From IMG/VR virus record IMGVR_UViG_3300031994_000060: a DNA stretch of 64,000 bases; one strand, given 5' to 3'. Below the pieces are notes generated by a model. The model ran no database searches. It was not told the DNA's origin and saw only the letters and a program-made list of their open reading frames with translations. Both the position numbers and the translations under genes were made by a program. Shown here one piece after another: positions 4,952 through 49,909 of this stretch. Source of the DNA: an uncultured virus (IMG/VR IMGVR_UViG_3300031994_000060). Lineage: Duplodnaviria > Heunggongvirae > Uroviricota > Caudoviricetes. Positions within the stretch are counted from its first letter, which is position 1, and every line of letters begins with the position of its first letter.

Positions 4952-5974
4952 ATGAAAAAACGATTATTAGTTATACCTTTTATGTTAGCTTGAAGTTTTG
5001 CTTCGGCTAACAGTTGATTACCTGAATTACCTATGAATATTTATGGTAATATAAATCTTTGATCATCAGAAATTAATTGATGAATATTAGATATTTATGC
5101 AGGTAATAATAAGTTAGCATCATTTGATATTGTATCAGGTAAATATGGATCAAATAAAGCTACAGAAGAACATCTAATCTTAAATGAATTTGATTGAAAT
5201 TTAACATTTAAAGTTAGATATAATTGAGAAACTTATGATGTAAATTCTATTGATGATACAAATAAAAGTGATTGATGTCCAAATAAAGATAATATTACAT
5301 TTGTATCAAAAGATTGTAGATACGATATCACTCTTAAAGAAATCGTAAAACAAGAAGAAAAGACAGTTACAAAGTCTTATAGTTGATCATGATGACATCG
5401 TAATACAATCGTTAAAGAAGAACCTAAAAAAGAAAAAGTATCTTGGTATAACGAATGAAATCAATATGAGATATTAAGTAATTGATATTCAAGAGAATTT
5501 AATAATGCATATACATTTGCATATATGAATTGAATAACAACTATGCCTAGTATTCAACAAGCAGATATGAATTGATCATTGACAAGAATAGCGATGGCAA
5601 AGATGTTATCTCAATATGCAATTAATGTTTTATGAAAGAAACCAGATACAACAAAGATTCCAGCATTTGATGATGTATCAATAGAATTGGATTATAAGTA
5701 TAATAATTGAGTATCATTAGCTTATCAATTATGAATTATGTGAGTATGAATAAAAAGCTTTAGACCATATGATTTGGTTACAAGAGCTGAATTTGGAACA
5801 GCTTTATCAAGATTGTTATATAATACTCAAAATGGTAGAGATATATATTATACACCACATTTAAATAAATTAATGAATATGTGAATTATAACAAATGTTG
5901 ATCCAGATTTACAGGAAACAAGATGATATGTAATGCTTATGTTGATGAGAAGTGCAAAGAATTTTATATCTTAA
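4952..5974 (+). CDS. secreted S-layer homology (SLH) domain protein, host-like
   Basis: Signal peptide MKKWLL...FASA; C-terminal SLH-type motifs (LTRIAMAKML, FDDV, FRPYDLVTRAEF, TRGYVMLMLMR). Confidence 0.85.
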
Positions 5975-5983
5975 GATATTAAA

Positions 5984-6139
5984 ATGATCCGATGTATTAT
6001 ATATATTATAATAGTTGTACGAATATGTCAACAGCTTTTTAAATATAATAAATGAATTGGTATATGAATGTTAATACTTTGACTTGTAAGTTGTTATTGC
6101 TTTATTAAAATGTTTTTACTATTTAATGGAAGGATATAA
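5984..6139 (+). CDS. small two-TM membrane protein
   Basis: Two hydrophobic segments; CGA codons fall in the hydrophobic stretch. Confidence 0.55.
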
Positions 6140-6730
6140 ATGGCAAATGAATGTAACAATTTCATGATCATTAAAAGGATTGATTGATGAAAATTAACAG
6201 ATGAAGAGATCTGAGCTTTTATTCGTAAAGAAGATTCACCTGAATGACAGTGAACAGAAGTTGATATTGATTGAGAAAAGTATTTTTTCAGTTATCAATT
6301 TGTTGTACCTGTTAAACAAGATGATGATTGGCGAGACAACAACATTAATAATTGGTGAGTAAAGCGAGATGGTTGATATTATGCTTATGTTAAGTTGTCT
6401 GATACAGAAATGACAATCCATTTTGCAACACCATGGTGACCACCTAGTAAATGGTGTAATGCTGTTTGTAAAAAATACAAAGAACTTGACATCAGACTTG
6501 AATACGATGAACCATTAATGTGATTTCAAGGAGAGATGTGAAGGGATGAAAAATGAAAATTGTTTGATAATTATAGAGAAGCTTGAGATTATCTTGTATG
6601 GTGTGATGATTGTTGAATAGGACAAGAAGAAACAAACATATCATATAGAGATGATGTTGATGCTTTGTTATGTGATGCTTGTTATCAAGAACTTTTAAAT
6701 CATAACCCACCAAAAAAATGAGGGAAATAG
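6140..6730 (+). CDS. DUF1281/YubB-like ferredoxin-fold protein
   Basis: NWGVKWD, FATPWGPP and YDEPLMGFQG match the family pattern NWGTKW...FxTAWSPP...YxExGxGF. Confidence 0.75.
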
Positions 6731-7047
6731 ATTACAAGATTTGAGAGTTATTTGCTAAATGAGAGAGTTGATCAGTTAGCAATACTCAAGTAAGTCTACA
6801 AGACTGAAATGTTTATGTGCTATTACATGGTAATATAATAGCAGCAAGACCTGAAGATAGTCAGGATCTAACACTTAATCTTAAGGTTGGATGGCAAACA
6901 CAAACTACTAAGAACAGGATTAATTGAGTTTTATATGCTATGAATTATCCAGTTCAAGTTAAAGCTATCAAGACTATTTGGTTTTTCGTACATGAAAACG
7001 GAGACAAATGGCCAGTAACAAATTGAATAAACTTCATTCACAAATAG
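6718..7047 (+). CDS. hypothetical phage protein (GWQTQTTKNRIN motif)
   Basis: Open frame; GWxTxTTKxRxN-like motif. Confidence 0.65.
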
Positions 7048-7101
7048 TTTATTCATCCGGGACGATGTAAAACTAATTTTATTATTTTATTCGATTGTAT
7101 A

Positions 7102-7443
7102 ATGAACAAGGAATTACAAGCGTATGTGGTTAAAGTCTTTCCAGAAGTAATCAAAAAGACTAAAGACTGAAGTGATTTTAAATCAATGAAGGTTCTTATT
7201 GAATGGGATAGAGAAGAAGAATATCCTAGTAGAATCGTTCTTGAACAATGATGAGACAAAAAATGTGAAGTAGCTAAATCATTACAAGAATGAAAAGAAT
7301 ACATCTTCTCATTAAACTTCAGAGCAAATGAATGGACTGATGCTAATTGAGCACAGACGGCATTCGGAAGTATCTCAGCATGGAGAGCACAACCAATGTT
7401 AGAAGGTTGAGCAACTGAAGACAACTCTTGACTTCCATTCTAG
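7102..7443 (+). CDS. DUF3127-like single-stranded DNA-binding protein
   Basis: YP...FSLNFRANEW...FGSISAW; C-terminal tail ending LPF. Confidence 0.7.
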
Positions 7444-7487
7444 TTCATAGGTAAGAACTACCTTTATATTATTATCGATTGTATATT

Positions 7488-8390
7488 ATGGCTATTCAAA
7501 TTGTTAAAGCCGAACGTAAAAAGGCTAAAATGAGAATTTGAATTTCATCAGCTTCAGGGCAATGAAAAACTTATTCTTCATTACTTATGGCTAAGTGATT
7601 AGCCAAATGAGATCTATCAAAAGTTTGTTTGATAGATACAGAAAATTGATCATGACATTTATATTCACATCTTGGTGAGTATTCAATAATTGAAATTGAT
7701 CCAGCTGAGGCTTCAACAGCTAACATTTTGGAAGCATTCAAAGCAGCTGAAGATGCATGATTTGAAGTTATCATTTGGGATTCATCATCACACCGATGGG
7801 ATTGGATCTTATCAAAGAATGATGAAGTAGCAAAGAGAATGTTTAATAACTCATTCAGAGCTTGGGCAGAAACAACACCTCTATATAATAGAGTAGTAAA
7901 TCATATGCTTGCTTCACCTTGCCATGTAATTATTACAAGCAGAAAGAAACAAGAATATGCTTTAGAGAAATCTGAGAATGGTAAGAACGAAGTGAAGAAG
8001 TTATGAATGAAAGATGTTCAGAGGGATACTTTTGAGTATGAGCTAACTACTGTATTTAATCTTGATCAGTTGCATTATGCGACAGTATCTAAAGATAGAA
8101 CAGAATTGTTTGATTGACAAGAACCTTTTATCATCACCGAAGAGACATGAAAGACAATGCTTGAATGGTGTGAATCAGGTAAAGAAGTTAAGCCTGAACC
8201 AAAGAAGGTTGAAATCAAACAAGTATCTGAACCTGAACAAAACCTACCAGAGATCTCAGATGAAAGATTTGCGAAAGCTTGTGAAGTTATTAAAGACTGA
8301 AAAGCGACAGTTGAATCATTAACACAACATTTCAAATTATCTGAAAATCAAACTAACATAGTTAATGAACTATTTATGAAGAAGGCATAG
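7488..8390 (+). CDS. AAA_24/Sak4-like P-loop ATPase (recombination/annealing)
   Basis: KAERKKAK start, Walker A SASGQGKT (TGA=Gly), IDTE, IIWDS, FEYELT. Confidence 0.85.
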
Positions 8391-8407
8391 TACGCCTTCT
8401 TCTTTTA
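8377..8407 (+). terminator. intrinsic terminator
   Basis: GAAGAAGGC-atagtac-GCCTTCTTC followed by T-tract. Confidence 0.7.
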
Positions 8408-8430
8408 TATAGCTAACCAAAGACCTAGAG

Positions 8431-9507: not shown

Positions 9508-9537
9508 AAAAGTTTTATATTCTTATATTAAAGAAAC

Positions 9538-9930: not shown

Positions 9931-9993
9931 TTGGTTAGAGGGCGTTCTTGTTAAAGGGCGTCCTTGTTTTTTATATATTCAATAATAGACACG

Positions 9994-10956: not shown

Positions 10957-10971
10957 CTTAATATTAAATAC

Positions 10972-11826: not shown

Positions 11827-11830
11827 TAAT

Positions 11831-12070: not shown

Positions 12071-12276
12071 TTGAAAAACTAAAAGAGCGAGAAGATAGAA
12101 AGGAGGATCGAGAGGATCAACAAATGATTGCTGTAATTAATTCTGAAGTAGATAAACTCAAACAAGAGTTAGATGATACAAATAAGAATGCAAATGATAT
12201 TAGATTAAAGATGTATGAATTATTTAATCAATACCGCATGATCACTTGAAGAAATCATCCAATGGATTATGAGTAA
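12064..12276 (+). CDS. small coiled-coil protein
   Basis: Track ORF extended through TGA. Confidence 0.55.
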
Positions 12277-12302
12277 CTAGATTTATTTATTATTTATTAG
12301 AG

Positions 12303-12683
12303 ATGGAGAAACTTAAAGAACTACTAAATAAATGGATAGAAGAATGATGGAAACCATATTGAGATGATTATAGTATATTAAAAATAAGTGAAATAGAAAA
12401 ATCAGATTGATTATATTTTGTATCGTTTGTTTGAGAAGATTACCCTTGACCTGTTAATTTAGAGCATTTGCTAACAAAACAAGCAGGACTTATCAAATGG
12501 TTAGTAAAGAGCGATAAGATAGCTTGGAGAAAATGTTTAAACTTATGGTATGAGATAGCAGTAATAGATAAAGAGGGGGAAGATATAGATATAATGAGAA
12601 CCTTTGATGATTATGAACAATTACTTATGTATCTTGCTATACAAGATAATCCAATAGAATTTTTAATTAGTATTTTGAAGTAA
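12303..12683 (+). CDS. hypothetical protein, paralog family A
   Basis: C-terminus LAIQDNPIEFLISILK shared with 13818; N-terminus similar to 13189. Confidence 0.7.
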
Positions 12684-12895: not shown

Positions 12896-12927
12896 ATTTA
12901 TATTTTAATTATTCTTATTATTTAGAG

Positions 12928-13179: not shown

Positions 13180-13188
13180 TATATAGAT

Positions 13189-13575
13189 ATGGAAGAATTA
13201 CTAAACAAACTCATTAGGAAAGGTTGGAATCCTTTTGGTTGATATAAGCATTCAACTCCACGAGAAAGTTGTAATGTATATTGAAGATATATTACATTCC
13301 ATTGTAATGATTGAGATTATGATTATCCAGATTATAAATCACAAGATTATAATATTCGTGAACTTGTAAGTAAAGAAAGCTGACTATGGCAGTTTGTATA
13401 TGATAACTGATATAATCAAGAGAAAAAAGAATATCGGGAATGATATACAAAGTATAATATGAAAGCTGAATATTGGGATACTAATGATTATGAATATTAC
13501 ATTATAGAAAGTGCATTATGTAATGAAGAAGATTTAGAACAATTTTTATTAGATAATATTAAAGTAAAATGATAA
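13189..13575 (+). CDS. hypothetical protein, paralog family A-like
   Basis: MEELLNKLIRKGWNPFG versus ELLNKWIEEGWKPYG in 12303. Confidence 0.65.
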
Positions 13576-13817: not shown

Positions 13818-14279
13818 ATGGAGATATTAGATAGAATAGAAGAAAGCTGATTAGATAAGTTAATTAAATTACTAACAGAACATTGCAGAAAGCATTATTG
13901 ATTTAAAGATAATGATGATATAGAAATAGATACTGATAGTGTAAACTTTCATTTATATCATAACTGAAAAAGATTATTCAATATATGAGTAGAAAAAGTG
14001 ATTTATAAAGATTTTTGATTTATCAAATGGTTAGTAGATAATGATAAGATAAAGCTACAAGAAAAAACTGCATTAGTTAATTATTTAGAAGATATATTAT
14101 GATATAAGAGAGAAGATGGCTTACTAATGCTACTATCAATACAAGATAATCCAATAGAGTTCCTAATCTCAATATTGAAAGATAAAAAAGTCAGAACTAT
14201 ATATGTTGATAAAGACTGAAATGTTAGTTGAGATACTAAACAATATTATGATTGTTGAATCAATCTTTTAGATAGTTAG
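13818..14279 (+). CDS. hypothetical protein, paralog family A
   Basis: GFIKWLVDNDKI...LSIQDNPIEFLISILK. Confidence 0.7.
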
Positions 14280-16243: not shown

Positions 16244-16540
16244 ATGGACAAATACGAAAGAAGAGAATTACACGAAGAACTTAATGCTTTATCAGAGTTC
16301 GAAGAACAAAACAAAGAAAGGATGCAAGAAATTGCTAAGGTATTAGTTGATGACTATATACCTAAAAACAAAGATGATTATGAGTTTAAAGATCTCAGAA
16401 TATGCAAACATGGGATCCAGAGGCAGAGTTGCCATAACTGTTTAGGCGAATGGAATTGCCATTTAGAAGATATAAAGGACGCGAATGAAAGAAACAATAT
16501 ATTGAGTGATGTACACGACTGATCGCATTGAAGCGAATAA
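16244..16540 (+). CDS. hypothetical protein with CKH...CHNC metal-binding motif
   Basis: Track ORF extended through TGA. Confidence 0.6.
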
Positions 16541-17861
16541 ATATAGATTTGTTGATAGAAGTATTAATCGATGAGCTAAAAAAAGCTGAACGATGTATAC
16601 TAAATATGTAAACTTATTTCATTATGATAAGAAAACTAAAACATATTATTTACCACCTGTAACTTGGAAAGATACTAAAGCACAGTTTGGTTTTAGTTAT
16701 GAAATATCTATCAAACCAATTATGAAGCTTTGGGAATGACAACAGAAAACTGTTGATTATTGTGTCAGATCATTTTGACAATGAGTATCTTCTATATTAA
16801 TTGTATCTGAAACAGCTACTTGAAAATCAATTCAGATGCTTTGATTGGTTGATGCTTTTAAATGTCCTACATTAATAGTTGTTCCATCAGAAGCAATTGG
16901 ATTAGGTATTCAAGAAAAGTTACAACCATACTGTGATGCACAGTATCTTGATTGATCAAAGATCAGAAAAGCTTTTGATAAACAGAAACTTCCAGATGTT
17001 CTAATAACTCATAGACAATCAGCTGTAAATTGTTGGGATATCATTAATTGAAAATATGATCTTATGTTAAATGATGAGCAACATCATCTATCTGAATGAA
17101 TGAAGATGATGTGTAATACATGGGAAGGTAGAGGTATTATCTGATTAACGGGAACACCATTTCGTAAAGAAATGACACAACAAGATTTTTTATTATATTT
17201 TCAAAAGATTTATGAAACTTGACTTAAGTCACTTCCTGTTCGTGTGCTTACTCATAGATATAATCATACCTATTCTATGTCGGATTTTATGGAAGCTTCG
17301 AAAGGATTAGAGCCAGAAAGCCCAGAAGTATTAAGGCGTTTGGTTAATAATAATAATGACAAAATTTTCGACTTGAAAAACGTTGTGGGAAAGTTATATC
17401 ACAAATGTGGATTTAAGAGAATAATGGTTTTTGTAGACAGAAGAGAGTATCAAGAAAAGATTAAAGAGTTAATATTTCCAAATGCAATACTTATAAATTG
17501 AGACACTGATAAAGAAAAAGTCCTAGAGGAGCTTAAATCCAAAGACGAATTCTTGATCATAGGTATGGTTACAGCAAGTTGAGAATGATTTGATGTACCT
17601 AGAATAGAGGTATGAATTCTATTCTTTAGTACAACATGGGCTGGATCAATAGAACAAATGGTATGAAGAGCTAAAAGATTTGCTGATGGTAAAGAATATG
17701 CCTATTGGGTTGATGTTCAAGAACATTCAAAAATTGAACCAGACCAATACAAATGATTCTGAATGAGTGAAAGACTAAAACTATACAGGGAACGTTGATG
17801 GCCTGTAGTGACATTAGACAGTTATATCAATAGTCTGTCAAACAAAACCAAGCTTTTTTAG
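16485..17861 (+). CDS. superfamily 2 DExH helicase
   Basis: Motif I ETATGKS, II NDEQHH, III GLTGTP, V GEGFDVP, VI QMVGRAKR. Confidence 0.9.
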
Positions 17862-17874
17862 TTTGATAGATTTA

Positions 17875-18702
17875 ATGTCGATTGTACTTTCACCTTCATC
17901 ATTCTGAGGGTTCATGCAATGTCCATATAAACGGAAGAATTCTGTGTATGACGCTGATCCTAGGAATACTGCTCATTGAGCACTTGCAAACGCAGCAGCA
18001 GCTGCAGCAATTTCTTGAACAGATAATAAACTTTGACCACGATTAAGATACTACGATAATTATATTAATGCTAAAGTAGATAAGAAAAAACAAATCAAAA
18101 CTGATATATTGAAAACAGGTATGTGAAAACTTTATAAATTTTTTAAACAATATATTACACCTGATTATCAATTATGGCAAGAAATGAAGTTTGAATATCC
18201 ATGGGATTATGATGAAGAAGATGTATGGATTTCTTGACAACCTGATGTAATTATTCTTTATAATAATCCAAATAAAGAAGATAAGATTGTTGCTGAAGTT
18301 ATTGATATTAAATGCTGAAAGACTTCATGGTATGATAAACCAGATATCTGGAGAGAAAACAGCCAACGATATTTTTATCCCTGGTTTGTGTTTACTCATT
18401 TCTGACAAGAGATTATGCTTACAGGAATAGATAAACCATTAGTTAAATTTACATTTGCTGTTATTGATAAATGAACTTGAGATCTACAATTCTTTTCTAA
18501 GACAATGGATGAATATACTGTAGATATCCAAATGAAAGAACATATAAAACAATTCAGAGAACTCCAAAAACAAAACCTAGACAAAAAAGATTATCCTGCT
18601 ACAAAGTGTAGAGGTTGTGCATTCTGCGAATTTATCGATTCTTGTCCTTTGAAGACTGCAGAAGTTTCAGTTACTAACGAAGAATTAGATGACCTCTTTT
18701 AA
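17875..18702 (+). CDS. Cas4-like PD-(D/E)XK nuclease with Cys cluster
   Basis: LSPSS...CPYKW, GQPD, IDIKCGK, C-terminal CRGCAFCEFIDSCP. Confidence 0.8.
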
Positions 18703-30370: not shown

Positions 30371-30777
30371 TATCATACAGTATCTTTATAAATCTTTTCA
30401 TCACTGAATAGTGATTTTCATTTATGCTTGTCTTTGATTAAACTTTCTTTATAGAACAACTCTCTAGGTAAAGCTAATAATCAGTAAAGTTCTTTGACAA
30501 CGGCATCGTTCAAGACTTTTTCTCGTCATCGATCTTTCAATAGATAGAGAAGCTGTTCATGAACGATTTGCCTGTTACCAAAGAATCTATTTAAATTATC
30601 ATGTCCTATTTCAGGAACCATAATTTTATTCTCGTTATTGTCTGTATTATACTCTTTACGATTAGACTTCCCGAGTATATGGTGTAGATTCTTTGTCGTC
30701 TTATCTTTCAATAAGATAAGTTTATACTGTTTATTGTCTACTGTAGTTATCCTTTCAATTCTGTTCCTGTGCTTCAT
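30370..30777 (-). CDS. HNH-like endonuclease
   Basis: NLHHILG...N...N...H spacing; track ORF extended through TGA. Confidence 0.5.
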
Positions 30778-31622: not shown

Positions 31623-33296
31623 TTAAGAAGCCAATATCATATATACAACATCAGCATTCTTTTCTTCTGGTGTTAATGCATCGTATTGTGCTTGTGTTAA
31701 TTTTGTTATAGGACGTGATGATAATGCGTCTGTCCATGAATATCCATTAGCTGTTTTAGACAATAACTGTCCAGCAGATCAACTACCTGGATCCTCTATT
31801 AGTACTGGTTTATTAGTTACATTGTCCCAAGTTACATATATAGGTCCAGCTGTTCATTCGATAAGATAGATAACATCAGCTTCTTTCTCCTTTTGAGGAA
31901 GTGCGTCATATTCAGCTTGAGTGAGCTTTTGTGCTCAACTTCAAGTAATGAGATCATCCCATCAATAACCATTTTCCATCTTCATTAATACTTGTCATTC
32001 GTAACCATCAGCTGGCATAATCATTACATCAGGTTTGTCTGTAATATTATTCCAAGATACTGTTAGTTCTCAAGCATTACCTGTAATAAGATATATCACA
32101 TCGGCATCTTTCTCTTCTGGAGTAAGTGCATCATATTCAGCCTGGGTTAATTTCATTGCTACTACTGGAACAACAGCAGTTCCTGTAATAAGATAGATTA
32201 TATCTGCTTGCTTCTCACTTGGTGTTAGTGCGTCATATTGAGCTTGTGTAAGCTTAACAGCACTACTTCATCAAGCAACAGAAGTCCATTCATATCAATT
32301 AGCCGTCTTTGTTAGTACCTGTCCAACGCTACCATTAGCTGGCACAATCATTACATCAGGCTTATTAGTCACATTCTCCCATGCGATTGTTAATGTTTGT
32401 CATTGTCAAGTGATAAGATAGATAACATCAGCCTGTTTTTCTTCAGGAGTTAAAGCATCATATTGAGCTTGTGTAAGTTCTATTACACTTGATCATCCTG
32501 ATTGAGATGCTTGCCATGCATATCATGATGCTGTTTTAGTAAGTACTTGTCATGCAACTCAGTTTAATGGATTAACCATAACATCAGGTTTACCTGTTAC
32601 ATTATTCCATGCAACTGTAATTGTTCCTCAAGGTCAATCTCATTCTATCAAATAGATAGTATTAGACGCCTTTTCTTCTGGACTTAATGCATCGTATTGT
32701 TCTTGCGTAATCGTCATTACGGCAGTTCATCCGTCAACAGCCAAACTTCAGCTTAATGGATCCCAAGCTGTTCCGTTCCAAGCAACATTAGTTCATGCTG
32801 CAAATTTAGGATCAACTAAATGCTCGGTCTCTACATTATATACATCTCATACTACCATACCATCTTGAGGTAATGCATTATAATTAAGAACACTACCTTT
32901 ATATCTGTATACACTACTTATTGATGCAGAGATTAATGAGTCAACTTCTGGCTTTGTATAGACAGAAGTTACATTAGCCTTAGCATTCAATGCAGTTTGT
33001 GTAGCATTACTGATAGGTTTATCAGCATCTGATGTATTGTTAACATTTCCTAATCAAACATCTGCTGCATCCATTTGGATGTTGATGTTCTTGTCGTTAA
33101 CTGCATTCGTTGTTGTTGAATCAAACTGAACTCAATTTTTTAGAAACGTTATAGTTGAATTATTTACTACCTGTCCTGGAGGTATGTTGTCTAGATCCCT
33201 GAAATCGTTTGTGAATGCTGTTCTTCACAACTCAGATCTATAAGGTTTTCTAGCAATTTCTTCTATAAGCTTCTGTGAATTCGTAAGATTTGGCAT
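31623..33296 (-). CDS. tail/head fibre protein 1 with six TQxxYDAL repeats
   Basis: MPNLTNSQKLI start; DVGLGNVNNTSDADKPIS motif; repeated LTQAxYDALxPxEKxADxIYLI and GQVLxKxxxGYxW. Confidence 0.8.
31640..32720 (-). repeat. six degenerate intragenic repeats (fibre modules)
   Basis: gcatcatattg/gcgtcatattc cores near 31680, 31905, 32130, 32232, 32457 and 32690. Confidence 0.8.
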
Positions 33297-34439: not shown

Positions 34440-35003
34440 TTACGCCCCTGTTGTGGTGCTTGTTGTGGGAGGATAGATTGATGTGTATGGAGATGCTACT
34501 ATCCAAGCCGGAACAGAATTTGGTCTGATAGCATTAATGAGTTCATTAGTTTGTTGATTATTTTGTGCAATAACTCTTGCTTCAGCTAATTCTGTTCTAA
34601 GTCTTTGAGTCTCCTGTTCGCAAAGTTTATCAAGAACTTTTTGTACATTAGCAGCAGATGATGCAATTATTTGCGCTGTATTCTGTTGTCATGCTAAAAT
34701 AGCTCTTTCAATACTTTGGTTTGTATTACAGAAACCCATGTTCATTTGACTTGTTAAGTTAGATATTGATTGTTGATTGAATAGTTGATTTTGCCAAGCA
34801 GTATTATTATTGATTAAATCAACAGTATTATCATGATTATTATTGTTGTTCATACCATTTAATAACCAAGCTGCTCAAGCATTTCATCATCAAAATCAAT
34901 TACCAAACAATCAATTACCATTACTCATGAATAAGAACAAGATTAATATAATCAACCAAGTTCACATTCAACCCATAGTCATTGTTGTATTAGTTCCGTC
35001 CAT
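34440..35003 (-). CDS. TM + Gly/Asn-rich + coiled-coil protein of unknown function
   Basis: WLIILILFLF, GFC, QKVLDKLC, IRPNSVPAWIVASP. Confidence 0.75.
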
Positions 35004-36068: not shown

Positions 36069-37673
36069 TTAGCTATCAATAACAAATGTTATTATATTTG
36101 ATGCAGTTCATGCTGCAGGTGCTGTATTTGATACTTTGAATATATATGATTTTCCACTATCTCAACTATAAGCCGTTGCTCATGTACTAGCATTAGATCT
36201 AATAGTTGCAATATCTGAGATAGTTGATTGTTTATTATTCCAAGTATACTTTTCTCAAGCTGTTACTAATCAAGTAGATGTTCATCCTGAAGAAGCAGCA
36301 ACACATGAGTATGTAGTATCTGTAAGATTAATACATACATTACTTGAAGCGTTAGCAGTAAATGATCATTTACAAGTATTATTTTGGCATATTGTTAATG
36401 TAGCATTATTCACAGTAGGAATAGTAGGTTGTCAAGTTAGATCACAATATTTACCAGATGTAGCAACTTTTGCTAAAGATGGTTTATTTTTAATATAATC
36501 TTTACAAGTAGTTGTCGCTTGATTCCAATCACTTTGGATCTGTGCAGCAGGTATTGTTGGTTGTCATGTCAAATCACAATATTTACCTGATGTTGCTACG
36601 GTAGCGAGACTAGGTTTATTTTTTATATAATCTTTACAAGAACTGCAAGATTGATTCCAATCACTCTGTATTTGAGCTGCAGGTATTGTTGGTTTATTTA
36701 AGATTACTCACATACCAGTAGTAGCATTCCAATCGCTTTGTACTTGTGCAGCTGGAATTGTAAGACTGACTGCTCATGTACATCCATTTACTGATGTAAC
36801 TGGAGCATTAGCATATCAATATCAACTAGCTGTTTTAGTTAATACTTGTCATGTACTTCATGTTCAAGGATTAAATCATGTAGGTACAGCTCATCAATCT
36901 TTAATTATTTTACCAGTAGTTCAATCAAATACTGCTAAATGTCAGTTAGTAGCAGAAGATGGTCAAGTTACATCTCAAGTTCACGCTCAAGATAAAGCGT
37001 CATCAACATACTTTTTAGTGGCTGGTTGATAATTTCAAGTAGGAGTAAATGCAGTTGTATTTGTTTTAGTAAGTACATCAGCTGTTTTAGCATATGAACT
37101 TAAATCAACTAATCAAGCCAATGGATCCCAAGCACTACCTGTCCATGCAACATTTGTTCAAGCCTCGAATTTAGGATTTGTTGTATGCGCTGCTTCAACA
37201 TTCCATACATCTCAAGTTTTGTTTCATGTTGTAGGAAGGCTGTCATAATTCGCTTTACTACCTTTATATTTATATACAGAAGACAATGCAGTATTGATTG
37301 CATTACTAATAGCAGTATCTGTTTGTGCACTTGTATATACATCAGCAGCATTAGCTTTTAGATTCAATGCTGTCTGAGTAGCTGTACTAACAGGTTTATT
37401 AGCATCGCTAGTATTATCAACATTACCTAATCACACATCAGATGCAGACATAGTTATGTTAATAGATTTAGCACTAGAAGCATTAGTAGTAAAACAATCA
37501 ACTGCTGTTCAATTCTTCTGAATAGTAATAGTAGAATTATTAACAGTAGGGATAGTAGGCTGACCAGTCAAATCGCAATACTTACCAGAAGTAGCAACAG
37601 CACATAGTGAATTGCTATATGCTTTCTTATTCATCTCTTCAATAAGTTTTGCAGAGTTTGTTAAGTTTGCCAT
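36069..37673 (-). CDS. tail/head fibre protein 2
   Basis: MANLTNSAKLI; VATSGKYCDLTGQP x3; QSDWN...YIKNKP repeats; DVGLGNVDNTSD. Confidence 0.8.
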
Positions 37674-37763: not shown

Positions 37764-38888
37764 CTAAGCACTTAATTTATTGATAACTAATACTTCAAGA
37801 GTAGCAGTTTCATTATCACTAGAAGTTAATGTTACTTTTCCTGCTTCAACAGTTGGTTCGATAGCGAATCCATTAAGAGTTCCACTCTTTACAACATATG
37901 AAACGTGAGAAGTAGCTTTAACGAAGCTGTCAGTAACTGATGTAGATTTACCTGCAAAAGTTACATCGATGAATTTAGCTTCGAATGGAAGAGATCCTGT
38001 AGCTGATTCAACAGCAGCAACTCTATCTACTAAGTTGTCGTGAGCTCCAGCAATAGCAGCGATAGCAGCTTTATTGTTAGTCTCAGCAGTAGCAACAGTT
38101 ACACTATCAGCAGCTGTTACAGTTAATTTACCATCTGCTCATTCAGCAACTGTGTTAGATACGAATGTAGCATCTGAAGCTTGGATAGATCCTTCAGCTC
38201 TACTTCTGATATTAGATAAGTCTGAGATAGCATCTTGTTTAGCATCCCATTCTGCTCTTTTACCTGTAGAGTCAGCTAAGTCTTTGATATCGAAATCTGA
38301 AGCAGATTGGTCACCAGTGTTAACTCCACTTGTATTTCCTAACTTAGTTCTTTCAGCAGAAGTTAAGAATAAATGAGTTGAACCTTCTGTGATGTTATCA
38401 GCAGTATCAGTATTCTTATTGAAGTAAGCTGACAAATCAGTTACACCACCTAGAACGTCCCAAGCAGTTCCATTCCAAGCAACGTTATCTCCAGCTTTTA
38501 CTTCATGAGTAGGATCTGCATTTACGATATTCCAAACATCTCCAGTTTTATTTCCAGAAGCAGGAAGTTCTGCATAAGTATCTTTAGATCCTTTATAAAT
38601 GAAAGCTGCAGAGATTTCTGATTTAGTTGCGTATGTTTCAGCAACTGTAGTTTTATAACCTTGAAGGTCAGAATCTACATCTCAGATTTCACCCATTACT
38701 GTACTTCCAGAAGGAACAGTACCAATTGATTCAATTATTCAATCAGCTTTATCATCTACTGCACCAATTTCAGCCATAATGTCTGTACCAGCAGGGACGG
38801 TACCAATTTTGTCTTCGATGCTAGCAATAGAATTGTCAATACCTTCAATTTTAGCAATAAGTTTTCCAGAGTTAGTTAAGTTTGCCAT
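37764..38888 (-). CDS. tail/head fibre protein 3
   Basis: MANLTNSGKLI; YKGS...GDVWN...AGDNVAWNGTAWD; TDTADNITEGSTHLFLTSAERTKL. Confidence 0.75.
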
Positions 38889-40593: not shown

Positions 40594-40607
40594 CGTGTTC
40601 TAATATT

Positions 40608-42023: not shown

Positions 42024-42040
42024 TTGATTTTAATAAAGAT

Positions 42041-44929
42041 CTAAAGTTTGTCGTTCATTTCCGAACTATCACAAGCTGAACCTGATAAAATTTCATCACA
42101 GTATTCTCACTTGTTTATAACAACCTTATTCTCGAATGTTGCATCTGTTAGATATGAAGGTTTAGTTCTACTAATTCATACAGGTTCTAATAATCATATT
42201 TGATCGATATGTGTATTTTCGATATCCTCATAATCAGGATCTAACACATAGTATCATATATAGAATGATCAGAACTGTACATTATCTATTCATCTAGCTG
42301 TGATACATAATTCCAGAACATTGGCTGGTGCATTAACAGGTTCTTTGATACTCGCGAACATTGCCAGTTTAGACTCATAATCAGAATCCTCTCACATTTC
42401 ACGAATGGTCTTTGTTGTAGGTTTGGATGTTTTTAAGTCACGATATCCTGCCACCTCATTAAATAGAGTATGCGAATACATTTTTCAATGTCAATAGATT
42501 TTCTCACCATTTTCATAAACCATAATAGGTTTTGTAGATTCTTTCAAAGATAGCAACTGTGGATATCTAGTAGTTGTAATATCATTCATACGCTCAAATA
42601 GCTTTCAACCTAGAGTAGTATTGATCTCTCGAGTACTATCATTGGTTATATCTGAATGATCTCAGATTGCTGTCTTAACATATTGAATATGTTTCGGTGT
42701 TTGTAATCATTCTTCTCATACATATGCTGAGATAACTTCTACGATTTCTCATCATTGGATTTTTGATTCTTTATACTCTTCTCAATCTTTTTCAACAAAC
42801 GTATCCCATCACCATGTATTTCATTTATTTACATAGACATAATCTCATAAGAATATTCAATCTTTTACATGGACAACTCTTGCTCAATCTATCATCCAAT
42901 AATACCAACAGTTATAATGCTTATCATATATCAATAATTTTGAATAATGTGTACTGTCGGTATAATCTGATGAAGTATCATCTGGATCAGGCGATACATC
43001 ATTATTATCAAAGATAGATATATATCTATGATTAATAGTAGCATCTATATTTATCTTATCAAATCTATTATCTAATGGTTTGATATGTCAATTAACAAAG
43101 AATCAAGTATCTGGAGTAAATTGGATTGTTCAATAATATGCACTGAATTGTAATGTCTCTAATAGTTTTCATCTTCTAACTATTAAGAATTCTCAATCAT
43201 CATTATAGAAACTACCAGGCGAATAATATCAATCTTCATTTTCAGAAGCATTAATAAAGTTACCAGCAACAAGCGCATCTTGATTAGCTATTGCATAGAT
43301 GTTTTTAGGTCAGAATAGTAGTAATGATCAATACATAGATCTAACATCAGTTAATCATGCAGGTATTCTAAATACTCATCTAGCAGTATCTCATGTTGTT
43401 GGAGTAAACAATCAATTTAATGATCACGATCAAGATACATATAATAAGTTATCAGCTATATAACATATTCTTGTTCACCATCTTTCTATTCCTGTAATAA
43501 TATCTTTATTAGTTGCAGTAGATATTAATGTATCAAACAAAAATATTCTTTTATCTAATATAGGATACGGATCCTCTACTTCAAAATTTTTAGAGATATT
43601 AATTGATTGACATGGAGTTCATCAGAAATCTTCACCTCTATATATTACATCAGGTAATTCATCATCACTAGGTATTGTAATTTTATCATCTTTTCTAGAA
43701 TAGAATCAGTTAATAGAATAGATTTTATTACCTGCTGCAAAGTATGGGACTTCTCAATATTCTGGATAAGCCCATAATACATTTCATATATCTGAAGATT
43801 CAATAACTATATTTTCTCATTCAACTTTTTCAGGGAACTTTATAACTTGGATAAGTTCTGATACATTAGGAATAAAATATCAATCAGGCGGTAATTCTGA
43901 TTTCATAATTATATTCATCTGTTCTGTATCCATTTCAGGAACAGTTAATCAAGTTACATAGATTCATAAGTTTGGAATAGATACCCAATCTGATATAGCT
44001 ATTCTATTTTCTACATTATATAAATAGGCAAAATATTGTCATCAGAAATATATAATAGCTATCTTTGCTTCTCATCAATCTTTTCATTTAATTCACTTAG
44101 GAGTACCTATACCTCAATATCCCATAATAAAATGATCTGGGTTACATTCAGCCGATTCATATTCTTTTACTAATATAATAGGAGAAGTATCAGCATCATC
44201 AAAAGTATCTCACGTACAATTAACTTCATCTATTTGTTGAATATAAATACGCATACGAGCAGAAGCCTCATGAGTTTCTATTATTCATTGTTCGTCTTCA
44301 TTTGATGCAGAAGACTCTATCGTTCTTTCTCTTATATCTCTTGAAGGTGGTGTTTTTAATCTCTCATGATTTCTTGTTTGATATTCTCAATCATCACAAG
44401 TATCTTCATTACCATCACCTCATCATCTCATAAATGGGACATTTGCTTGTTGATGTCAAATTTCTCAATTATCTGCTAAATATCATTCAAGATCTGTATT
44501 GACTCTCCATGTTCTTTCTCAATTATCATTTAATGTATAATCTCAATCTACACGAGTTTGTCAATATGGTTCAACTATTTCATTACTTCTTCTCATATAG
44601 ATCCTATATCATTGGAAAGTAATTACATCAGTAAAGTTAGCATTACTCCATCATTTTTCTTTTGTTAATCTTGATACTCATAATTCTTGTAAAGTTATTT
44701 GACTATTTCTTTTAACATATTTATATAATTTACATCTCTTTAATCCTTTACACTTCTCAAACCAAAATTGCTGTTTAGATCAGTGAACAACATCTATATT
44801 CTTTGTAGGTCAATTACCAGACCATGGGTGTTCTACTGGCTGAACATTACACAAAACATTGAATATCTGGTTGGTATTCTCTCTATTAGGTTTTAGATCC
44901 CAAGCAGTTACTTGATCTTGTGCTACCAT
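42041..44929 (-). CDS. tail nozzle / tubular protein B-like stabilisation protein
   Basis: 962 aa beta-rich frame directly after adaptor; function inferred from size and synteny. Confidence 0.6.
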
Positions 44930-45735
44930 TGATTACCAAGATTTACAGTATAAAATGGTTGTGGTTGAGTTTCTAACTCTATACTACCAGGCATTGCATT
45001 ATCTACAATTTCTAATGTCTCAGGCACGATAGTATCATGTTTTCTAAGATAATCTAACTCTTTTCTATATAATGAATAATATGTTAAGTCTTCTTGTTGC
45101 CTAGCAATACCTTGTTGAGGTACTACTGATGCTCATACTATCCATGCTAATACTTGCATGAATGAGTCTGGTAATGGAATAATATCATCAAACTTCTCTA
45201 CCTTAACTGGTCAACAGAAGTAAGACATCCAGAGATCATCAACTACTTCATCTCATAGATCTACTTTTACTATCCTTCAGTCTAGTCATCACATACCAGA
45301 AATATATGAACCAGAGATTTGGTATTGATATGCACATAATTTATTCTGAGGAAGCACTTGTTTTAACTCTAATGGTTTACAAGGTGTTGTACAATTACAT
45401 TCACAACAAGGAAGGATTATATCTTTATCAGGTAAATTCATATCACAAAAACAAGAATCGATTCAGATCTTATCTATATCTTTCCAATTACCTCACCAAA
45501 ATTTATCTATCTTTCTCACAGGCCATCTTGATAATAAGGCTCACTGTGATTGTTCATTCATCTTAAATAAGTCTTTTCTATGCTGCCAAGACCAGTGCAT
45601 TCATTCATAATTGTAAATCATATTAACTCACATATTGATTAATCCAATAATAGAGTTAGGCCCTACCGCATAAGAAACACCGTGCTGATTTACGATAGGA
45701 TAGACTAATTGCATAAATTGCTTTACTGTGTACAT
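44923..45735 (-). CDS. head-tail adaptor / tubular protein A-like
   Basis: N-terminal helices, WSW, DDIIPLPDSF pattern; Cys-rich insert; synteny. Confidence 0.6.
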
Positions 45736-45905
45736 TTACAGATATTACGATCTAAAGCTTTTTTCCTTTTTAGGTCTTCTTTAGTCCAACCTGGTCTGGA
45801 TTCAATTTTTTTAAGTAGCTGCCATCACTTGCGTTTATATTCTATAAACATCATTGGTGTGACATAACATACTTTATCTCATTTTTTTACTCTATATAAT
45901 TGCAT
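45723..45905 (-). CDS. small basic hypothetical protein
   Basis: Open frame overlapping adaptor start. Confidence 0.45.
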
Positions 45906-46038
45906 CCTATTTATATAATATAAATATTAAACTAGGCTCACTACACGAGGTAGTAAGCCTAGAAGGACACGATGCACGTCAACTTCCACCTTTAGGGAAG
46001 AAGTCAACATAAATATTAGTAGGATTACTCCAATGGCA

Positions 46039-46066
46039 AGTATAGAAATAAAAATAGAAATTACAA
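46039..46066 (-). promoter_or_regulatory. promoter TTGTAA-N16-TATACT
   Basis: Upstream of tail operon; follows terminator 46076-46101. Confidence 0.7.
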
Positions 46067-46075
46067 GAGAAAAGT

Positions 46076-46102
46076 AAAAAAAGCCGTGAGTTTTTCACGG
46101 CT
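46076..46102 (-). terminator. intrinsic terminator
   Basis: AGCCGTGA-gtttt-TCACGGCT with A-tract on +. Confidence 0.75.
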
Positions 46103-47003
46103 ACTTATATAAGGCAATAACTTTATCTAAGAATTCATGTGAATAGATATTAGTATATTGGTTTATAACATCATCATTAAAGTCATTCAATCAAAGACGG
46201 AGTGGCGTATGCATTACCATTGGATGTTCTCTGAGATTGATATTACTATCATATCAGTATCTTTCAGCATCAGTAGCCGACCATAGAACTACTGCTTTAT
46301 TTCAGAACGCTTTAGCTACATGATGAAGACAACTATCACATCAGACTACTGCATATCTAGCAGCTAATGATACTACAAATCTCATATCAGGAGTGTCTAG
46401 ACATACACATCATTCAAGCTTAGGTTGGTCTGGTCTTTCAACAACATAGACAGTATATCATTTATTAATGAGTCAGTTAGCTAAGTATTGGGCATCTTCT
46501 GGCCTCATACTTCTATATGATTTGTCTGATCAATTGGCTTGAGTAGTCGAACCAAATGGCTGGAATAAAATAGGTTTAGCTCAGTCTAGAACATTATTTA
46601 ATTTCTCATGTTCTGCCAAGAACAAGCAAGGCTGAGGTGTTAGTCATCAAATAATTCAACCATACGGAGCTAATTGTTTAGCAGCGATCTCTAACCAGTT
46701 CCTTGCATCATTAAAGAATTCAGGATCAGTATATGGTTCAAGTTCTACATAATCATTTCACATTATAACATCACGGAATAATCTTCTATCATCTAATCAG
46801 TGAACTGATTGGATGTATGGATTACCTCGAAATGCTAATGGCCGTGAAGTAACTACTTTAACAGGCCTAGTTTTAGCAACGGCAGTGATTGCTCATGTCA
46901 TAGCAACACATCTACCTAATCAACCGTCAATACGGATTACCAAGGTTTTCTTTTCTGGTTCCTTAGTCTTTTTAATTTTAGCAACGTGTTTTTCCTTTTT
47001 CAT
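46101..47003 (-). CDS. GT9-like (heptosyltransferase-fold) glycosyltransferase
   Basis: IDGGLGR, GNPYI, ILFQPFGS, GCDSCLHHVAKAFG..AVVLW. Confidence 0.8.
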
Positions 47004-47105
47004 TTTATCGTGTCCTTAATTGATAAAATAGACCAGGGAGCTAGAGGCTAGCTCCCCTTTATACACACAGATCAACGTTTGTTTAACACCATATGTATTA
47101 GTTGT

Positions 47106-47133
47106 AGAGTAAGGAAAATTTTGGGAATTGCAA
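47106..47133 (-). promoter_or_regulatory. promoter TTGCAA-N16-TACTCT
   Basis: Upstream of GT9. Confidence 0.65.
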
Positions 47134-47136
47134 GAG

Positions 47137-47167
47137 AAAAAAAGAGAGAATTAATCTCTCTTTTTTT
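47137..47167. terminator. terminator, left border of switch cassette
   Basis: AAAAAAGAGAGA-attaa-TCTCTCTTTTTT. Confidence 0.8.
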
Positions 47168-48047
47168 AAAAACTAAATTCTCAACTCTCAGTAAACTCAT
47201 GAATAACATATCAGCATCAACAAGTTTTAGTTCATCATGTAGCCTCTACTCATCATTGAGGATACCATATGTATGCTACTCATCAGTTTCATGATTCAGG
47301 CCATGCTGTTCATCAATAAGAGTTTGCTCATTTTCATCATGTTCAATAGCATCAAGGACAGCAAGTACATCATTCATATACATAAGTTGAATTACCTCAT
47401 CATCATCCAGCTCAACAAAATGTTACAGCTCAATTTCATATGGATATAGTAATTCAATCTCATCAATTTCAACCACCTGTTACTTCACGTCATTTTTTAT
47501 TATAGCATATGAAATAAGCATCTTGTCAAATTCATCAAGCTCAACCTCCTCATCATGCTGCTCAACATCATCATCAATTATAAAAATTTCATCATCAATA
47601 TCATTGTCAATCATATCAACATCATGGTCATGCAAGTCATCCTCAACCTCAACTTCATCAACAACGTCATACATCACATCTACCTCAACCTCATCATCAT
47701 CAATAAGCAACAATATCAAATCAACAAGTATCTCATCAATTACAAGTTTGACAATTTGATTGTAATATTCATCAACATCAAACTGTAATTGGATATGTTC
47801 CAGAAGATATTGTTTGGTTACAACACATTACTACTCATCAAGCACCTCATCATCCTCAAGGTTTACTTCAGTAACTAGAACTCAACGTTCAATATCAACC
47901 TGCACCTCAACCTCAAACCAATAGAAAGCAGACACACATCTCTTTAATTAAAGGTCGTATCTTAGTACCTCAAACATATACTTCAGAAATATCAGAAGTT
48001 CACTTCTTTAGAGATTTAAGTTCAGTTGCTCAGATATATATACTCAT
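47166..48047 (-). CDS. Gly-rich adhesin-like protein L
   Basis: MSIYIG...EVYVGGTKIWP...FLLVGGGGAGG...GGGGGAGG...VIHEFTESGEF; 293 aa; most Gly encoded by TGA. Confidence 0.85.
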
Positions 48048-48068
48048 TAGAAAATATTTTTTAGAGTA

Positions 48069-48098
48069 AATTTTGTATAACAATTATTGTGCAAAGTA
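48069..48098. repeat. left inverted recombination-like site AATTTTGTATAA-CAATTA-TTGTGCAAAGTA
   Basis: 48079-48100 is a perfect 22 bp inverted repeat of 48197-48218. Confidence 0.85.
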
Positions 48099-48148
48099 AT
48101 GTTTATCAACTGAAATAACTATCAGTTTTTAGACATTACTTTAGAAAT

Positions 48149-48176
48149 AGAGTAACTAAAAAATTACAAAATGCAA
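48149..48176 (-). promoter_or_regulatory. promoter TTGCAT-N16-TACTCT inside the IR-bounded segment
   Basis: Same spacer and same -10 hexamer as the GT9 promoter; points at protein L. Confidence 0.65.
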
Positions 48177-48198
48177 GATGAAATGTATAAAAAAATAT

Positions 48199-48228
48199 TA
48201 CTTTGCACAATAATTGTTGTGCAAAGTA
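48199..48228. repeat. right inverted recombination-like site TACTTTGCACAA-TAATTG-TTGTGCAAAGTA
   Basis: Perfect 12 bp arms around an asymmetric 6 bp core that is the reverse complement of the left core. Confidence 0.85.
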
Positions 48229-48256
48229 GATCTTTTATATGCCATGTAATTTTTTT

Positions 48257-49909
48257 ATGAGTATATACTTATGAAATAAAACAATAGTATATTCTGATAT
48301 GCAATGACCATGTCCAGATTGATTCCATGTACCACTAAAATCTGAAATGAGTTCTCTTGTAGATATAATTACATCTACATTCTCATTATGAAAAAATGGA
48401 ATGATAAATTATCTAAAAATGCCTATGGCATGATTAAGGGCATACAATAACTGAGGTGTTTGAAATCAATGATCACAAGCATACTATTGGACTTCATCTT
48501 GGTGAGGTGAGGGTAAAGCATGATATATGGGCTATGCTGCTGCTTATAATCCTGTTAGTATTGGTGATAATAGAACATGAGATGCTTGTTCTATTCGTGC
48601 ATTTAAAAATTCTCCTGTAATTCCTGATTCATCATGGACTACACTATATGATTGAAGTAGTGTAGCAATATGAGCTTGAATATTCCATAATGTTTCACAT
48701 TGATTAATATCAATAAGCTGAGATGGTTCTACATGGTATACAATACAAGATAAGAACCTATGAGCTACTATTGTATGGGACTGATCACGACAACAATCTA
48801 GTTGCTGATGATATTTTCAACGATGAAATAATTATATGTTCCCATTTAGTTGAGATATTACTACTGCAAATGGTATGGTTGATGCAGGTACATATTGACC
48901 ATGAAATTATTATGATAGCTCAACATTTATAATACAAAAAACTAGACCACGAAGATGGGACAGCTCAGATAATAAAAATCTATGGTGATGAGAAACACAA
49001 TGAACATCTACAGTAACAGTACCTGCTGAAATAAAGAATCTATACATATGAGCTAATGAAGCTAAAGAGGTTTATGTAGGTAGTAATAAAGTACGACCTA
49101 GTATACCTTCTAATTATTCCTTGGATTTCTTAGTTGTATGATGATGATGAGGTTGAGGATGATCAATAGGTAATGGTGAATGTATACAATGATGAGGTTG
49201 ATGAGGTTGAGCTGTAATTGAATGTAGTAATTACTTAATATTATGAGGTTCTATAAATGTTACAATTTGACAATGATGATGTGGATGATATAATTGAGTT
49301 CCTTGTAATTGATGAGATACTTGTTTCTATGATATAATAGCACCATGATGATGAGCTTGATGAAGTCCTTGATGGGATGGTAATAATTGACATGATTGAG
49401 CTTCTTGATGATGAGGTGCTTCAAATGGTAAATATAAATGAGTTTGATGATGTTGAATATGTAATTGTTTATATTGAAGTAACTGAAATTGCACTCCAGG
49501 TAATTCATCTTGTTGAGGTTGATGATGATGAGGGGCTTGATGAAATAAGAGCCATTGAACAAATAATTGACAAATAGATTGAGATGAATGAATATACTCT
49601 AGTATCTCTTGAACTTGTGTATGATATTGATGATGATGAGGATGAGGGAAAAAGTATAGTCCTGCTTGATGCTGAAAAGCATGATGATGAAATTGAGGTT
49701 GAGGTGCTTGAACTCCTAATACATGATGAGGTTGATGATGATCAGGTTATTGAGGTTGAACTTGATGAAGTTGAGTAGTTATTGTTAGATACCCTACTAA
49801 TTGAAATTATTGAATTAAATCATCAACATGATGAACTTGTTGCTATATATGTAATTGATACTGTGTTCATGTATTTAATGAAGACTGAACATTTGAAGCA
49901 AAATGATAA
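48257..49909 (+). CDS. FISUMP/Fib_succ_major-like domain + Gly-rich adhesin-like protein R
   Basis: MSIYLG start (alternative ATG 48239); QGPCPDGFHVP, DKNLGAT, YFQWGNNY; then EVYVGSNKVWP...FLVVGGGGGGG...VHVFNEDGTF; 550 aa. Confidence 0.85.

Follow-up and report, generated by a model that had tools for sequence, protein, structure and literature searches.

Which amino acid do the codons CGA and CGG specify in a virus that already uses TGA as a sense codon? The question is raised by a 64,000-bp stretch of DNA (here called the window) from the uncultured virus record IMGVR_UViG_3300031994_000060 of IMG/VR, part of a contig of 86,321 bp according to the database rows of its own proteins, for which an earlier note had proposed that both codons are read as tryptophan. 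Our analysis supports this proposal, and with a probability of roughly 0.92 we consider the window to be part of a tailed-phage genome that would be written in the Absconditabacteria code, with UGA as Gly, CGA and CGG as Trp, and AGA, AGG, CGU and CGC as Arg. This reading is built on sequence comparison, in which in-frame UGA aligned with Gly, CGA and CGG aligned with Trp and not with Arg, and AGA/AGG/CGU/CGC aligned with Arg. The code itself has already been published for the host lineage, Absconditabacteria (SR1), for which UGA=Gly and CGA/CGG=Trp were predicted with Codetta (Shulgina & Eddy 2021, eLife, PMC8629427) and later restated (PMC13092985); what is new here is a virus clade that uses it.

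The window has a GC content of 31% and contains 2 open reading frames (ORFs) of at least 150 aa under translation table 11 and 48 under table 25 (TGA=Gly), so it is open only if TGA is a sense codon. Across 63 curated genes, comprising 18,843 codons, TGA occurs 1007 times in frame and GGN codons 451 times, and the genes end in TAA (43) or TAG (20). Arg is encoded mostly by AGA (511) and CGT (72), as the earlier note had observed, followed by AGG (64) and CGC (8). The same genes contain 258 TGG, 48 CGA and 8 CGG codons, and the last two would thus make up ∼18% (56/314) of the Trp codons. These 56 codons are spread over 26 genes, all of which would be mistranslated even by table 25, as had been claimed, and they extend from position 3425 to 63370; the previously given span of 4961 to 49096 does contain such codons and is too narrow. 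To our knowledge, none of the NCBI tables assigns CGA or CGG to Trp. The frequencies of CGA (25.5 per 10,000 codons) and CGG (4.2) in the window fall within the range described for Absconditabacteria (below 37 and below 7, respectively; PMC8629427), which we count in favour of a shared code.

One line of evidence comes from a codon-against-codon comparison with related DNA. For the family of the gene at 48239-49909 we collected 6 viral loci and 50 metagenome loci, together with two complete relatives, G001 (75,344 bp) and G002 (66,234 bp). Roughly 34 of the loci show TGA recoding and some 12 clearly use the standard code, while the unclear ones (L029-32, L035, L042-43, L048, and L052-53) were excluded. 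Before alignment, TGA was rendered as G and both CGA and CGG were masked as X in the translated ORFs, and therefore the alignment cannot favour either reading. In 1898 alignments between different recoded contigs (≤85% identity, ≥50 aa), the 3585 codons found opposite CGA were mainly TGG (1459, 40.7%) and CGA itself (490, 13.7%), followed by TAT (121, 3.4%), CAT (109, 3.0%), and CGG (104, 2.9%), with TTT at 2.4% and TGA at 2.3%. CGG behaved in the same way (TGG 304, 47.2%, and CGA 104, 16.1%, of 644 partners), and no Arg codon appeared among the ten commonest partners of either codon. Reciprocally, TGG was paired with TGG (60.8%), CGA (10.7%), and TAT (4.5%) among 13,660 partners. The genuine Arg codons formed a separate set, AGA being found opposite AGA, AAA, and CGT (5756 partners) and CGT opposite CGT, AGA, and CGC (3799 partners), and TGA was paired with TGA (49.5%), GGT (10.3%), and GGA (9.2%). 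Against the standard-code loci, TGG was again the commonest partner of CGA (35/194) and TGA stood opposite GGT, GGA, GGC, or GGG.

The same picture emerges at the level of individual sites. In comparisons of the window with G001 and G002 (25-58% aa identity), the 53 CGA/CGG codons of the relatives stood opposite window TGG in 17 cases, TAT in 6, AAG in 1, and an Arg codon in none. The CGA/CGG codons of the window were found opposite TGG (16569, 21123), TAT, CGA, codons for Leu, Val, Ile, or Phe, a few polar codons (CAA, CAG, GAA, AAC, CAT), and one AAG (23628), and never opposite an Arg codon. At site 48821 the recoded loci carry TGG (23), CGA (9), CGG (4), or TTC (1), and the standard-code loci carry TGG (4). 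The two sites of the glycosyltransferase-9-like gene (46842 and 46827) each had TGG 4 and CGA 1 as partners, and the homologue of this gene in the metagenome-assembled genome (MAG) G098, with 62% aa identity, gives the window/G098 pairs CGG/CGA, CGA/TGG, TGG/CGA, and TGG/CGA. When all loci were combined with site weighting, 347 window Arg-codon sites faced Arg (38%), Lys (16%), TGG (0.2%), and CGA/CGG (0%); 152 TGG sites faced TGG (41%), Tyr/Phe (23%), CGA/CGG (10%), and others (20%); and 23 CGA/CGG sites faced CGA/CGG (16%), TGG (15.5%), Tyr/Phe (10%), Arg (0.1%), Lys (0.1%), and others (55%). Altogether, ten sites lie in Trp-dominated columns, seven of them CGA (58724, 58676, 55655, 55448, 48821, 46827, and 30523) and the rest three of the eight CGG (56783, with W in 25 of 27; 46842; and 21123), the other CGG having hydrophobic partners or none. 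Among the remaining aligned sites, 16569 pairs with TGG and TAT, and the others are hydrophobic or variable; site 49094 has just CGA (2) as partner and no aligned partner was found for 47955. None of the aligned window CGA/CGG sites falls in a column made mostly of Arg or Lys, the pattern that the earlier note had named as contradicting its claim. A likelihood calculation over 26 window sites gave -126.2 bits for W, -129.2 for both M and Y, -147.1 for K, and -153.7 for R, so that Trp is the best assignment and Arg is 27 bits worse. On these aligned window data alone Arg is excluded, with Trp narrowly ahead of Tyr and Met.

Protein columns from database relatives point in the same direction. 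These relatives are table-4 translations, so that a W in them can stand for TGA and an R for CGA or CGG. When the first 300 aa of gene 48239-49909 were used as query, 120 proteins were found, one being the window's own table-4 product; W exceeds 5% of the residues in 117 of the remaining 119, which are for this reason taken as table-4 translations of recoded DNA. The column of CGA 48821 contains W63, R47, F4, and Y1 of 117, the columns of window TGG codons in this gene are mostly W with a minority of R, and an invariant Arg column contains R117 and no W. In the 1398-aa protein of unknown function (27 relatives), the five CGA/CGG columns read W21/R4, W21/R3/F1, W25/H1/T1, W17/R8/L1/Y1, and W23/R3/Y1 (pooled, W107 and R18 of 135), and W in them must stand for TGG and not TGA because the columns contain no G. 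As Trp occupies only ∼2% of the positions of this protein, the finding of five out of five sites in Trp columns goes far beyond chance, in line with the earlier note, which had seen CGA/CGG at positions where Trp is expected. The 670-aa virion protein (20 relatives), which has no CGA/CGG of its own, shows the converse, since its 14 TGG columns contain W192, R40, and Y17 of 280, with R in 9 of the 14. Its Arg columns contain R283 and K44 of 400, W being absent from the top seven residues, and its Gly columns contain W262 and G197. Finally, 110 representatives of the 875-aa replication protein were aligned, and the column of CGG 21123 contains W31, R12, H4, Y4, and others (110 matches); the other sites of this protein are occupied by L/V (20619), P/V/I (20922), and R1/W1 (23181). 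A single-sequence query with the 875-aa protein found no relatives on viral contigs, whereas alignment-based queries did find relatives.

We also scored six or seven proteins, translated with CGA/CGG as W, R, or X, against PHROGs and Pfam, profile libraries built mainly from standard-code proteins (scores in Table 1). W was preferred to R by PDDEXK_1 (+6.4 bits), phrog_20518 (+6.4), phrog_69 (+5.7), and phrog_124 (+3.5), and slightly by phrog_8954 and by phrog_2295 with gene 47166-48083. The sum over the best PHROG family per protein is approximately +5 bits for W. Taken alone, this test is mixed and weak, and suggests Trp as minor evidence.

Transfer RNAs that could decode these codons were found in a linked cellular genome. 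MAG G098 has 41 tRNA matches, and 16 scanned loci include the anticodons UCG, CCG, CCA, UCA, UCU, and CCU. The tRNA(UCG), the tRNA(CCG), and the tRNA-Trp(CCA) all have A1:U72 and a G discriminator, and the D arm of tRNA(CCG) is identical to that of tRNA-Trp. G73 and A/G1:U72 are among the criteria described for a provisional Trp identity (Shulgina & Eddy, PMC8629427), and both G73 and A1:U72 are present in the tRNA(UCG) and tRNA(CCG) of G098. By alignment, the G098 tRNA(UCA) has G1:C72, C2:G71, G3:C70, and U73, which is the Gly pattern given in the same paper (PMC8629427). Among the window and 27 relative loci, no tRNA with anticodon UCG or CCG was found, and among the relatives only G001 carries tRNAs, with anticodons UAU, UCA, CAU, and CGU. 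Three of them form a cluster (L061, 5900-6800) in which Ile(UAU) and Met(CAU) are joined by a tRNA of 94 nt with anticodon UCA, and near which there are two further Rfam tRNA matches; Thr(CGU) lies elsewhere. The tRNA(UCA) of G001, labelled 'SeC' by ARAGORN, combines an extended variable arm with the pairs G1:C72, C2:G71, and C3:G70 and with U as discriminator; it is a putative phage-borne UGA decoder of unusual shape.

Several observations weigh against reading CGA and CGG as Trp in a phage of this host lineage. The window has no tRNA gene, and ∼22 kb of the contig lie beyond it. The pair counts of the clade tally are not independent events and come predominantly from one large family, the relatives of 48239-49909. 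At least one aligned relative is available for ∼26 of the 56 window sites, and none for the other ∼30. The window CGA/CGG sites are less conserved than the TGG sites in these distant comparisons, as reflected by their larger share of other partners, and the lone aligned partner of site 23628 is AAG (Lys) in G001. Window-only likelihood places Trp just 3 bits ahead of Tyr and Met. In the profile test, phrog_47 (primase), which covers a single site (11275), scores 3.4 bits higher with R, phrog_2295 scores gene 48239-49909 higher with R, although over a different best stretch, and phrog_1366 is neutral. Furthermore, a search of 141 genomes of the putative host order (with matches to window 1-40000 at E <= 1e-6 and 44001-64000 at E <= 1e-4) gave no spacer-length perfect match to a CRISPR spacer outside conserved genes, although with two candidates scored per genome some spacers may have been missed.

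The link to this host order comes from shared genes. The family of the N-terminal part of 48239-49909 occurs in MAGs titled 'Candidatus Absconditabacterales', 'Candidatus Peribacteria', 'Candidatus Gracilibacteria', 'Patescibacteria group', and 'uncultured bacterium', and one 'Peribacteria' MAG (G008) belongs to the same order as G006 ('Candidatus Absconditabacterales bacterium'). We searched the DNA of 141 genomes of the order of G006 and, as control, 204 genomes of the sister order of G009. Window positions 5443-5969, which encode the C-terminal part of a secreted protein with an SLH-like domain, match 48 of the 141 genomes with 66-77% nt identity (best E 5.9e-89), in several copies per genome and in some cases on contigs above 100 kb; the matching ORFs contain 23-29 TGA each and have 59-72% aa identity. 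In the control order 5 of the 204 genomes match at all (best E 2e-12), none of them in 5443-5969. The SLH-like domain is a multi-copy domain of genomes of the Absconditabacterales order, and the phage may have acquired it from the host as a module for binding to the cell surface. In addition, contig C49 of MAG G098 contains homologues of 46101-47003 (812 nt, 66%, E 4e-38) and 34440-35003 (415 nt, 70%), adjoined by a 486-aa Gly-rich ORF with 109 TGA. On this short contig the three homologues are neighbours, and in the window 11 kb separate their counterparts; the contig represents either a piece of phage DNA binned with the MAG or what is left of a prophage. The window region 44001-64000 also gave short DNA matches, but these lie in Gly-rich, TGA-rich stretches and occur equally often in the two orders (19 of the 141 genomes and 20 of the 204 controls); they were given no weight for the host, and only the 812-nt match of G098 was retained. 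The earlier note's pointer to the host lineage is supported by nucleotide sharing with the order, for which the control has nothing comparable, and not by a CRISPR spacer match; in our judgement the host very probably belongs to the Absconditabacterales.

Gene sharing also raises the alternative that the contig comes from an Absconditabacterales chromosome, as a prophage or some other part of it, and has the cell's code for this reason. The fragments homologous to three window genes on C49 and the host-like SLH domain would fit this explanation. However, an alignment of the 670-aa virion protein found no match, and hence no prophage copy, in 185,579 species-representative genomes, direct terminal repeats are present in the IMG/VR records G001 and G002, which are rated as complete viruses, and the window contains both tail-fibre and replication modules. 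The window has virus hallmark genes and virus-like relatives, and we accept it as phage from its tail-fibre and replication families and the terminal repeats of the complete relatives. A chromosomal origin is thus improbable, and the reading of the code would be unchanged even if the contig were a prophage.

A second alternative is that CGA/CGG encode some residue other than Trp (Tyr, Phe, Met, or Leu, for instance), or that their decoding is ambiguous or poor and not cleanly Trp. The narrow lead of Trp over Met and Tyr in the window-only data would allow this, and several sites stand opposite Leu, Val, Tyr, or Phe codons. Nevertheless, at the clade level CGA faces TGG far more often (40.7%) than TAT (3.4%) or TTT (2.4%), the conserved columns contain W and R with scarcely any Y or F, and the acceptor end of the G098 tRNA(UCG/CCG) is that of its tRNA-Trp. 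The clade-level data together with the conserved columns decide for Trp over Tyr and Met, and we regard a different or ambiguous meaning as very unlikely.

Even less likely is that CGA and CGG are ordinary rare Arg codons, that table 25 suffices, and that the Trp-like contexts are coincidental. The eight example codons quoted in the earlier note are all present in the positions and contexts listed in Table 1, and the two in signal peptides or membrane starts (4961 and 23628) are poor examples of Trp-expected sites, since Arg or Lys would be equally ordinary there; with the AAG opposite 23628 and the higher R scores of phrog_47 and phrog_2295, they are what can be said for Arg. Against this, the 347 Arg-codon sites are never opposite CGA/CGG and the CGA/CGG sites face Arg codons in 0.1% of cases, Arg is far behind Trp in likelihood, Trp dominates the columns of all five sites in the 1398-aa protein, and TGG and CGA swap within the pair of 62%-identical proteins from the window and G098. 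Lastly, C-to-U editing of the mRNA (CGG to UGG and CGA to UGA), considered since CGG to UGG is a single transition and for which no supporting point was found, is scarcely credible, because edited CGA would become UGA, Gly here, yet CGA pairs with TGA far less often than with TGG, and dedicated UCG and CCG anticodon tRNAs exist in the linked MAG G098.

Returning to the reading of CGA and CGG as Trp, the lack of a tRNA gene in the window and of UCG or CCG anticodons in its relatives suggests that the phage relies on host tRNAs, which would be most likely for all three reassigned codons. The host tRNA-Gly(UCA) would supply UGA decoding, and the host tRNA(UCG) and tRNA(CCG), presumably charged with Trp, would decode CGA and CGG, in which case correct phage proteins could be made only in a cell with this code. 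Our data show the codon equivalence by comparison, the gene sharing with the order, and the Trp-type tRNA(UCG/CCG) in one MAG; the actual charging and decoding, and infection of an Absconditabacterales host, are inferred.

Regarding the gene layout (Table 1), genes are on the plus strand from 441 to 26781 and on the minus strand from 26836 to the end, with 48239-49909 (+) as sole exception. According to Pfam and PHROG matches, the plus arm is a replication module with a Sak4-like AAA_24 protein, a Toprim primase, a helicase, two PD-(D/E)XK nucleases, and a DUF3127 protein; the phage replication PHROGs matched are Sak4-like, primase, helicase, and exonuclease. The minus arm encodes tail-fibre proteins (PHROG tail-fibre families and Pfam Phage_tail_C), and the three tail-fibre-like genes have the N-terminus M[PA]NLTNS.KLI in common. 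The share of CGA/CGG among Trp codons is 37/138 (27%) in the replication arm (441-26781) and 19/176 (11%) in the structural arm (26836-63978; Fisher p = 3e-4), and neither codon occurs in genes 49990-51825 and 52681-54693. Of the Gly codons, TGA makes up an equal share in both arms (0.71 and 0.68, respectively). Capsid and portal labels guessed for these two genes by size and position found no Pfam or PHROG support and were withdrawn; a structure prediction for 49990-51783 from a 3-row alignment had a mean predicted local distance difference test score (pLDDT) of 32.7, is unusable, and leaves these labels unsupported. Three small paralogous genes (12246-12683, 13189-13575, and 13818-14279), two of which share a terminal ...LSIQDNPIEFLISILK motif, had no family match.

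The two divergent Gly-rich genes, 47166-48083 (-) and 48239-49909 (+), match Gly_rich_2 and phrog_2295. TGA accounts for 77 of 305 codons in the former and 107 of 556 in the latter, and the motif VYVG..K[IV][CGA]P stands just ahead of the Gly-rich part in both. The N-terminal domain of 48239-49909 matched no Pfam family with CGA/CGG as W, R, or X, and its N-terminal 294 aa gave one weak irrelevant match (E 0.29) among solved structures. In the public protein collection, the window's own products of 48239-49909, 52681-54693, and 55130-59326 are present as table-4 translations, with Gly as W and CGA/CGG as R.

Table 1. Coordinates of the features discussed in the text; W, X, and R scores are those obtained with CGA/CGG translated as each letter
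Feature	Coordinates	Strand	Details
CGA	4961	+	MKK[CGA]LL, signal peptide of 4943-5974
CGA	6365	+	NWGVK[CGA]D
CGA	15840	+	DF[CGA]YA-stop
CGA	16569..16571	+	near N-terminus of helicase gene 16485-17861; TGG in G001, TAT in G002
CGG	17932	+	CPYK[CGG]K
CGA	23628	+	LLK[CGA]IL
CGA	30523..30525	-	gene 30370-30777; partners TGG 2, CGA 1, ACT 1, GTA 1
CGA	47955-47957	-	GGTKI[CGA]P, Gly-rich gene 47166-48083; parallels 49094
CGA	48821	+	GGYFQ[CGA]GNNY
CGA	49094	+	SNKV[CGA]P
Secreted protein, SLH-like C-terminal domain	4943..5974	+	CGA 4961; C-terminal part 5443-5969 shared with putative host order
Replication protein with P-loop, 875 aa	20562-23189	+	CGA/CGG at 20619, 20922, 21123, 23181
Tail-fibre-like gene	31623-33296	-	six tandem Pfam Phage_tail_C repeats
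Tail-fibre gene	36069-37673	-	PHROG tail-fibre families
Tail-fibre-like gene	37764-38888	-	N-terminus M[PA]NLTNS.KLI
Glycosyltransferase-9-like gene	46101..47003	-	CGG 46842, CGA 46827 (SXPLAFXGNP)
Virion protein, 670 aa	52681-54693	-	
Unknown-function protein, 1398 aa	55130..59326	-	CGA/CGG at 58724, 58676, 56783, 55655, 55448
phrog_20518	gene 6140-6730	+	DUF1281_C-containing; CGA 6332, 6365; W 49.3, X 43.2, R 42.9 bits
phrog_69	gene 17863-18702	+	W 49.2, X 46.8, R 43.5 bits
PDDEXK_1 (Pfam)	gene 17863-18702	+	PD-(D/E)XK nuclease gene; CGG 17932, CGA 18040, CGA 18367; W 41.0, X 36.0, R 34.6
phrog_124			W 49.6, X 47.6, R 46.1 bits
phrog_8954			W 50.6, X 48.4, R 49.5 bits
phrog_1366			W 240.6, X 241.8, R 241.0 bits
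phrog_47 (primase)	site 11275		W 50.0, X 53.0, R 53.4 bits
phrog_2295	gene 48239-49909	+	W 109.8, X 103.7, R 115.4 bits
phrog_2295	gene 47166-48083	-	W 59.3, X 57.4, R 57.7 bits

The window resembles the Absconditabacteria code as published in its three codon meanings, low GC (0.31), AGA-dominated Arg, and the excess of CGA over CGG, and differs in being a virus genome with no tRNA gene in 64 kb. Several recoded phages have been described previously. Liu et al. (2023, mBio, PMC10746230) assigned code 25 to 44 of 50 predicted Absconditabacteria phages, which share with the window a dense in-frame TGA and a coding density far higher under table 25 than under table 11; table 25 was taken there as sufficient, and 'CGA' and 'CGG' occur 0 times in the main text of that article. 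Shulgina & Eddy (2021, PMC8629427) report phages only for the AGG=Met code, in two assemblies; like the window, these phages follow a host Arg-codon reassignment without a decoding tRNA, although codon, amino acid, and host phylum (Bacilli) are different. Stop-recoded phages with TAG=Gln or TGA=Trp in standard-code hosts (bioRxiv 10.1101/2021.08.26.457843) are likewise unreadable with table 11, but their code, as outlined in that preprint, differs from that of their hosts, and other papers attribute suppressor tRNAs of their own to them; the window phage, in contrast, matches the code of its presumed host and has sense codons changed too. A metaproteogenomic study of Gracilibacteria (PMC11452946) makes no mention of CGA, CGG, or tryptophan. 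Phages that read CGA/CGG as Trp were not encountered in the full-text literature, a scope that leaves most subscription journals outside.

With a confidence only a little above even, we propose that the window represents a large clade (more than 100 related public contigs) of Absconditabacterales phages with a three-codon code that has gone unrecognised in print. These would be the first viruses found to follow a CGN reassignment, their public protein sequences would be systematically wrong, and their uneven use of CGA/CGG would come from selection, through host tRNA supply or expression level.

Sense-codon reassignments are very rare, and a virus clade that tracks them would have practical as well as biological consequences. 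For the window alone, database copies made with table 4 show Trp in place of 1007 Gly, and table 25 would still misread 56 Trp as Arg, often where Trp is most conserved; errors of both kinds weaken homology searches, structure prediction, and virus classification of such contigs. Conversely, the many TGG/CGA/CGG swaps within the clade support a code that has so far been predicted only computationally. If the proposed clade is real, the bias between the arms (27% versus 11% CGA/CGG of Trp codons) would reflect host tRNA supply or expression-level selection. As this code narrows the possible hosts, it could be used as a host marker. Finally, viruses that track sense reassignments bear on the idea that a change of code is an antiviral protection, and a phage clade that appears to have followed its hosts through three codon changes would indicate that this code has been no lasting barrier.

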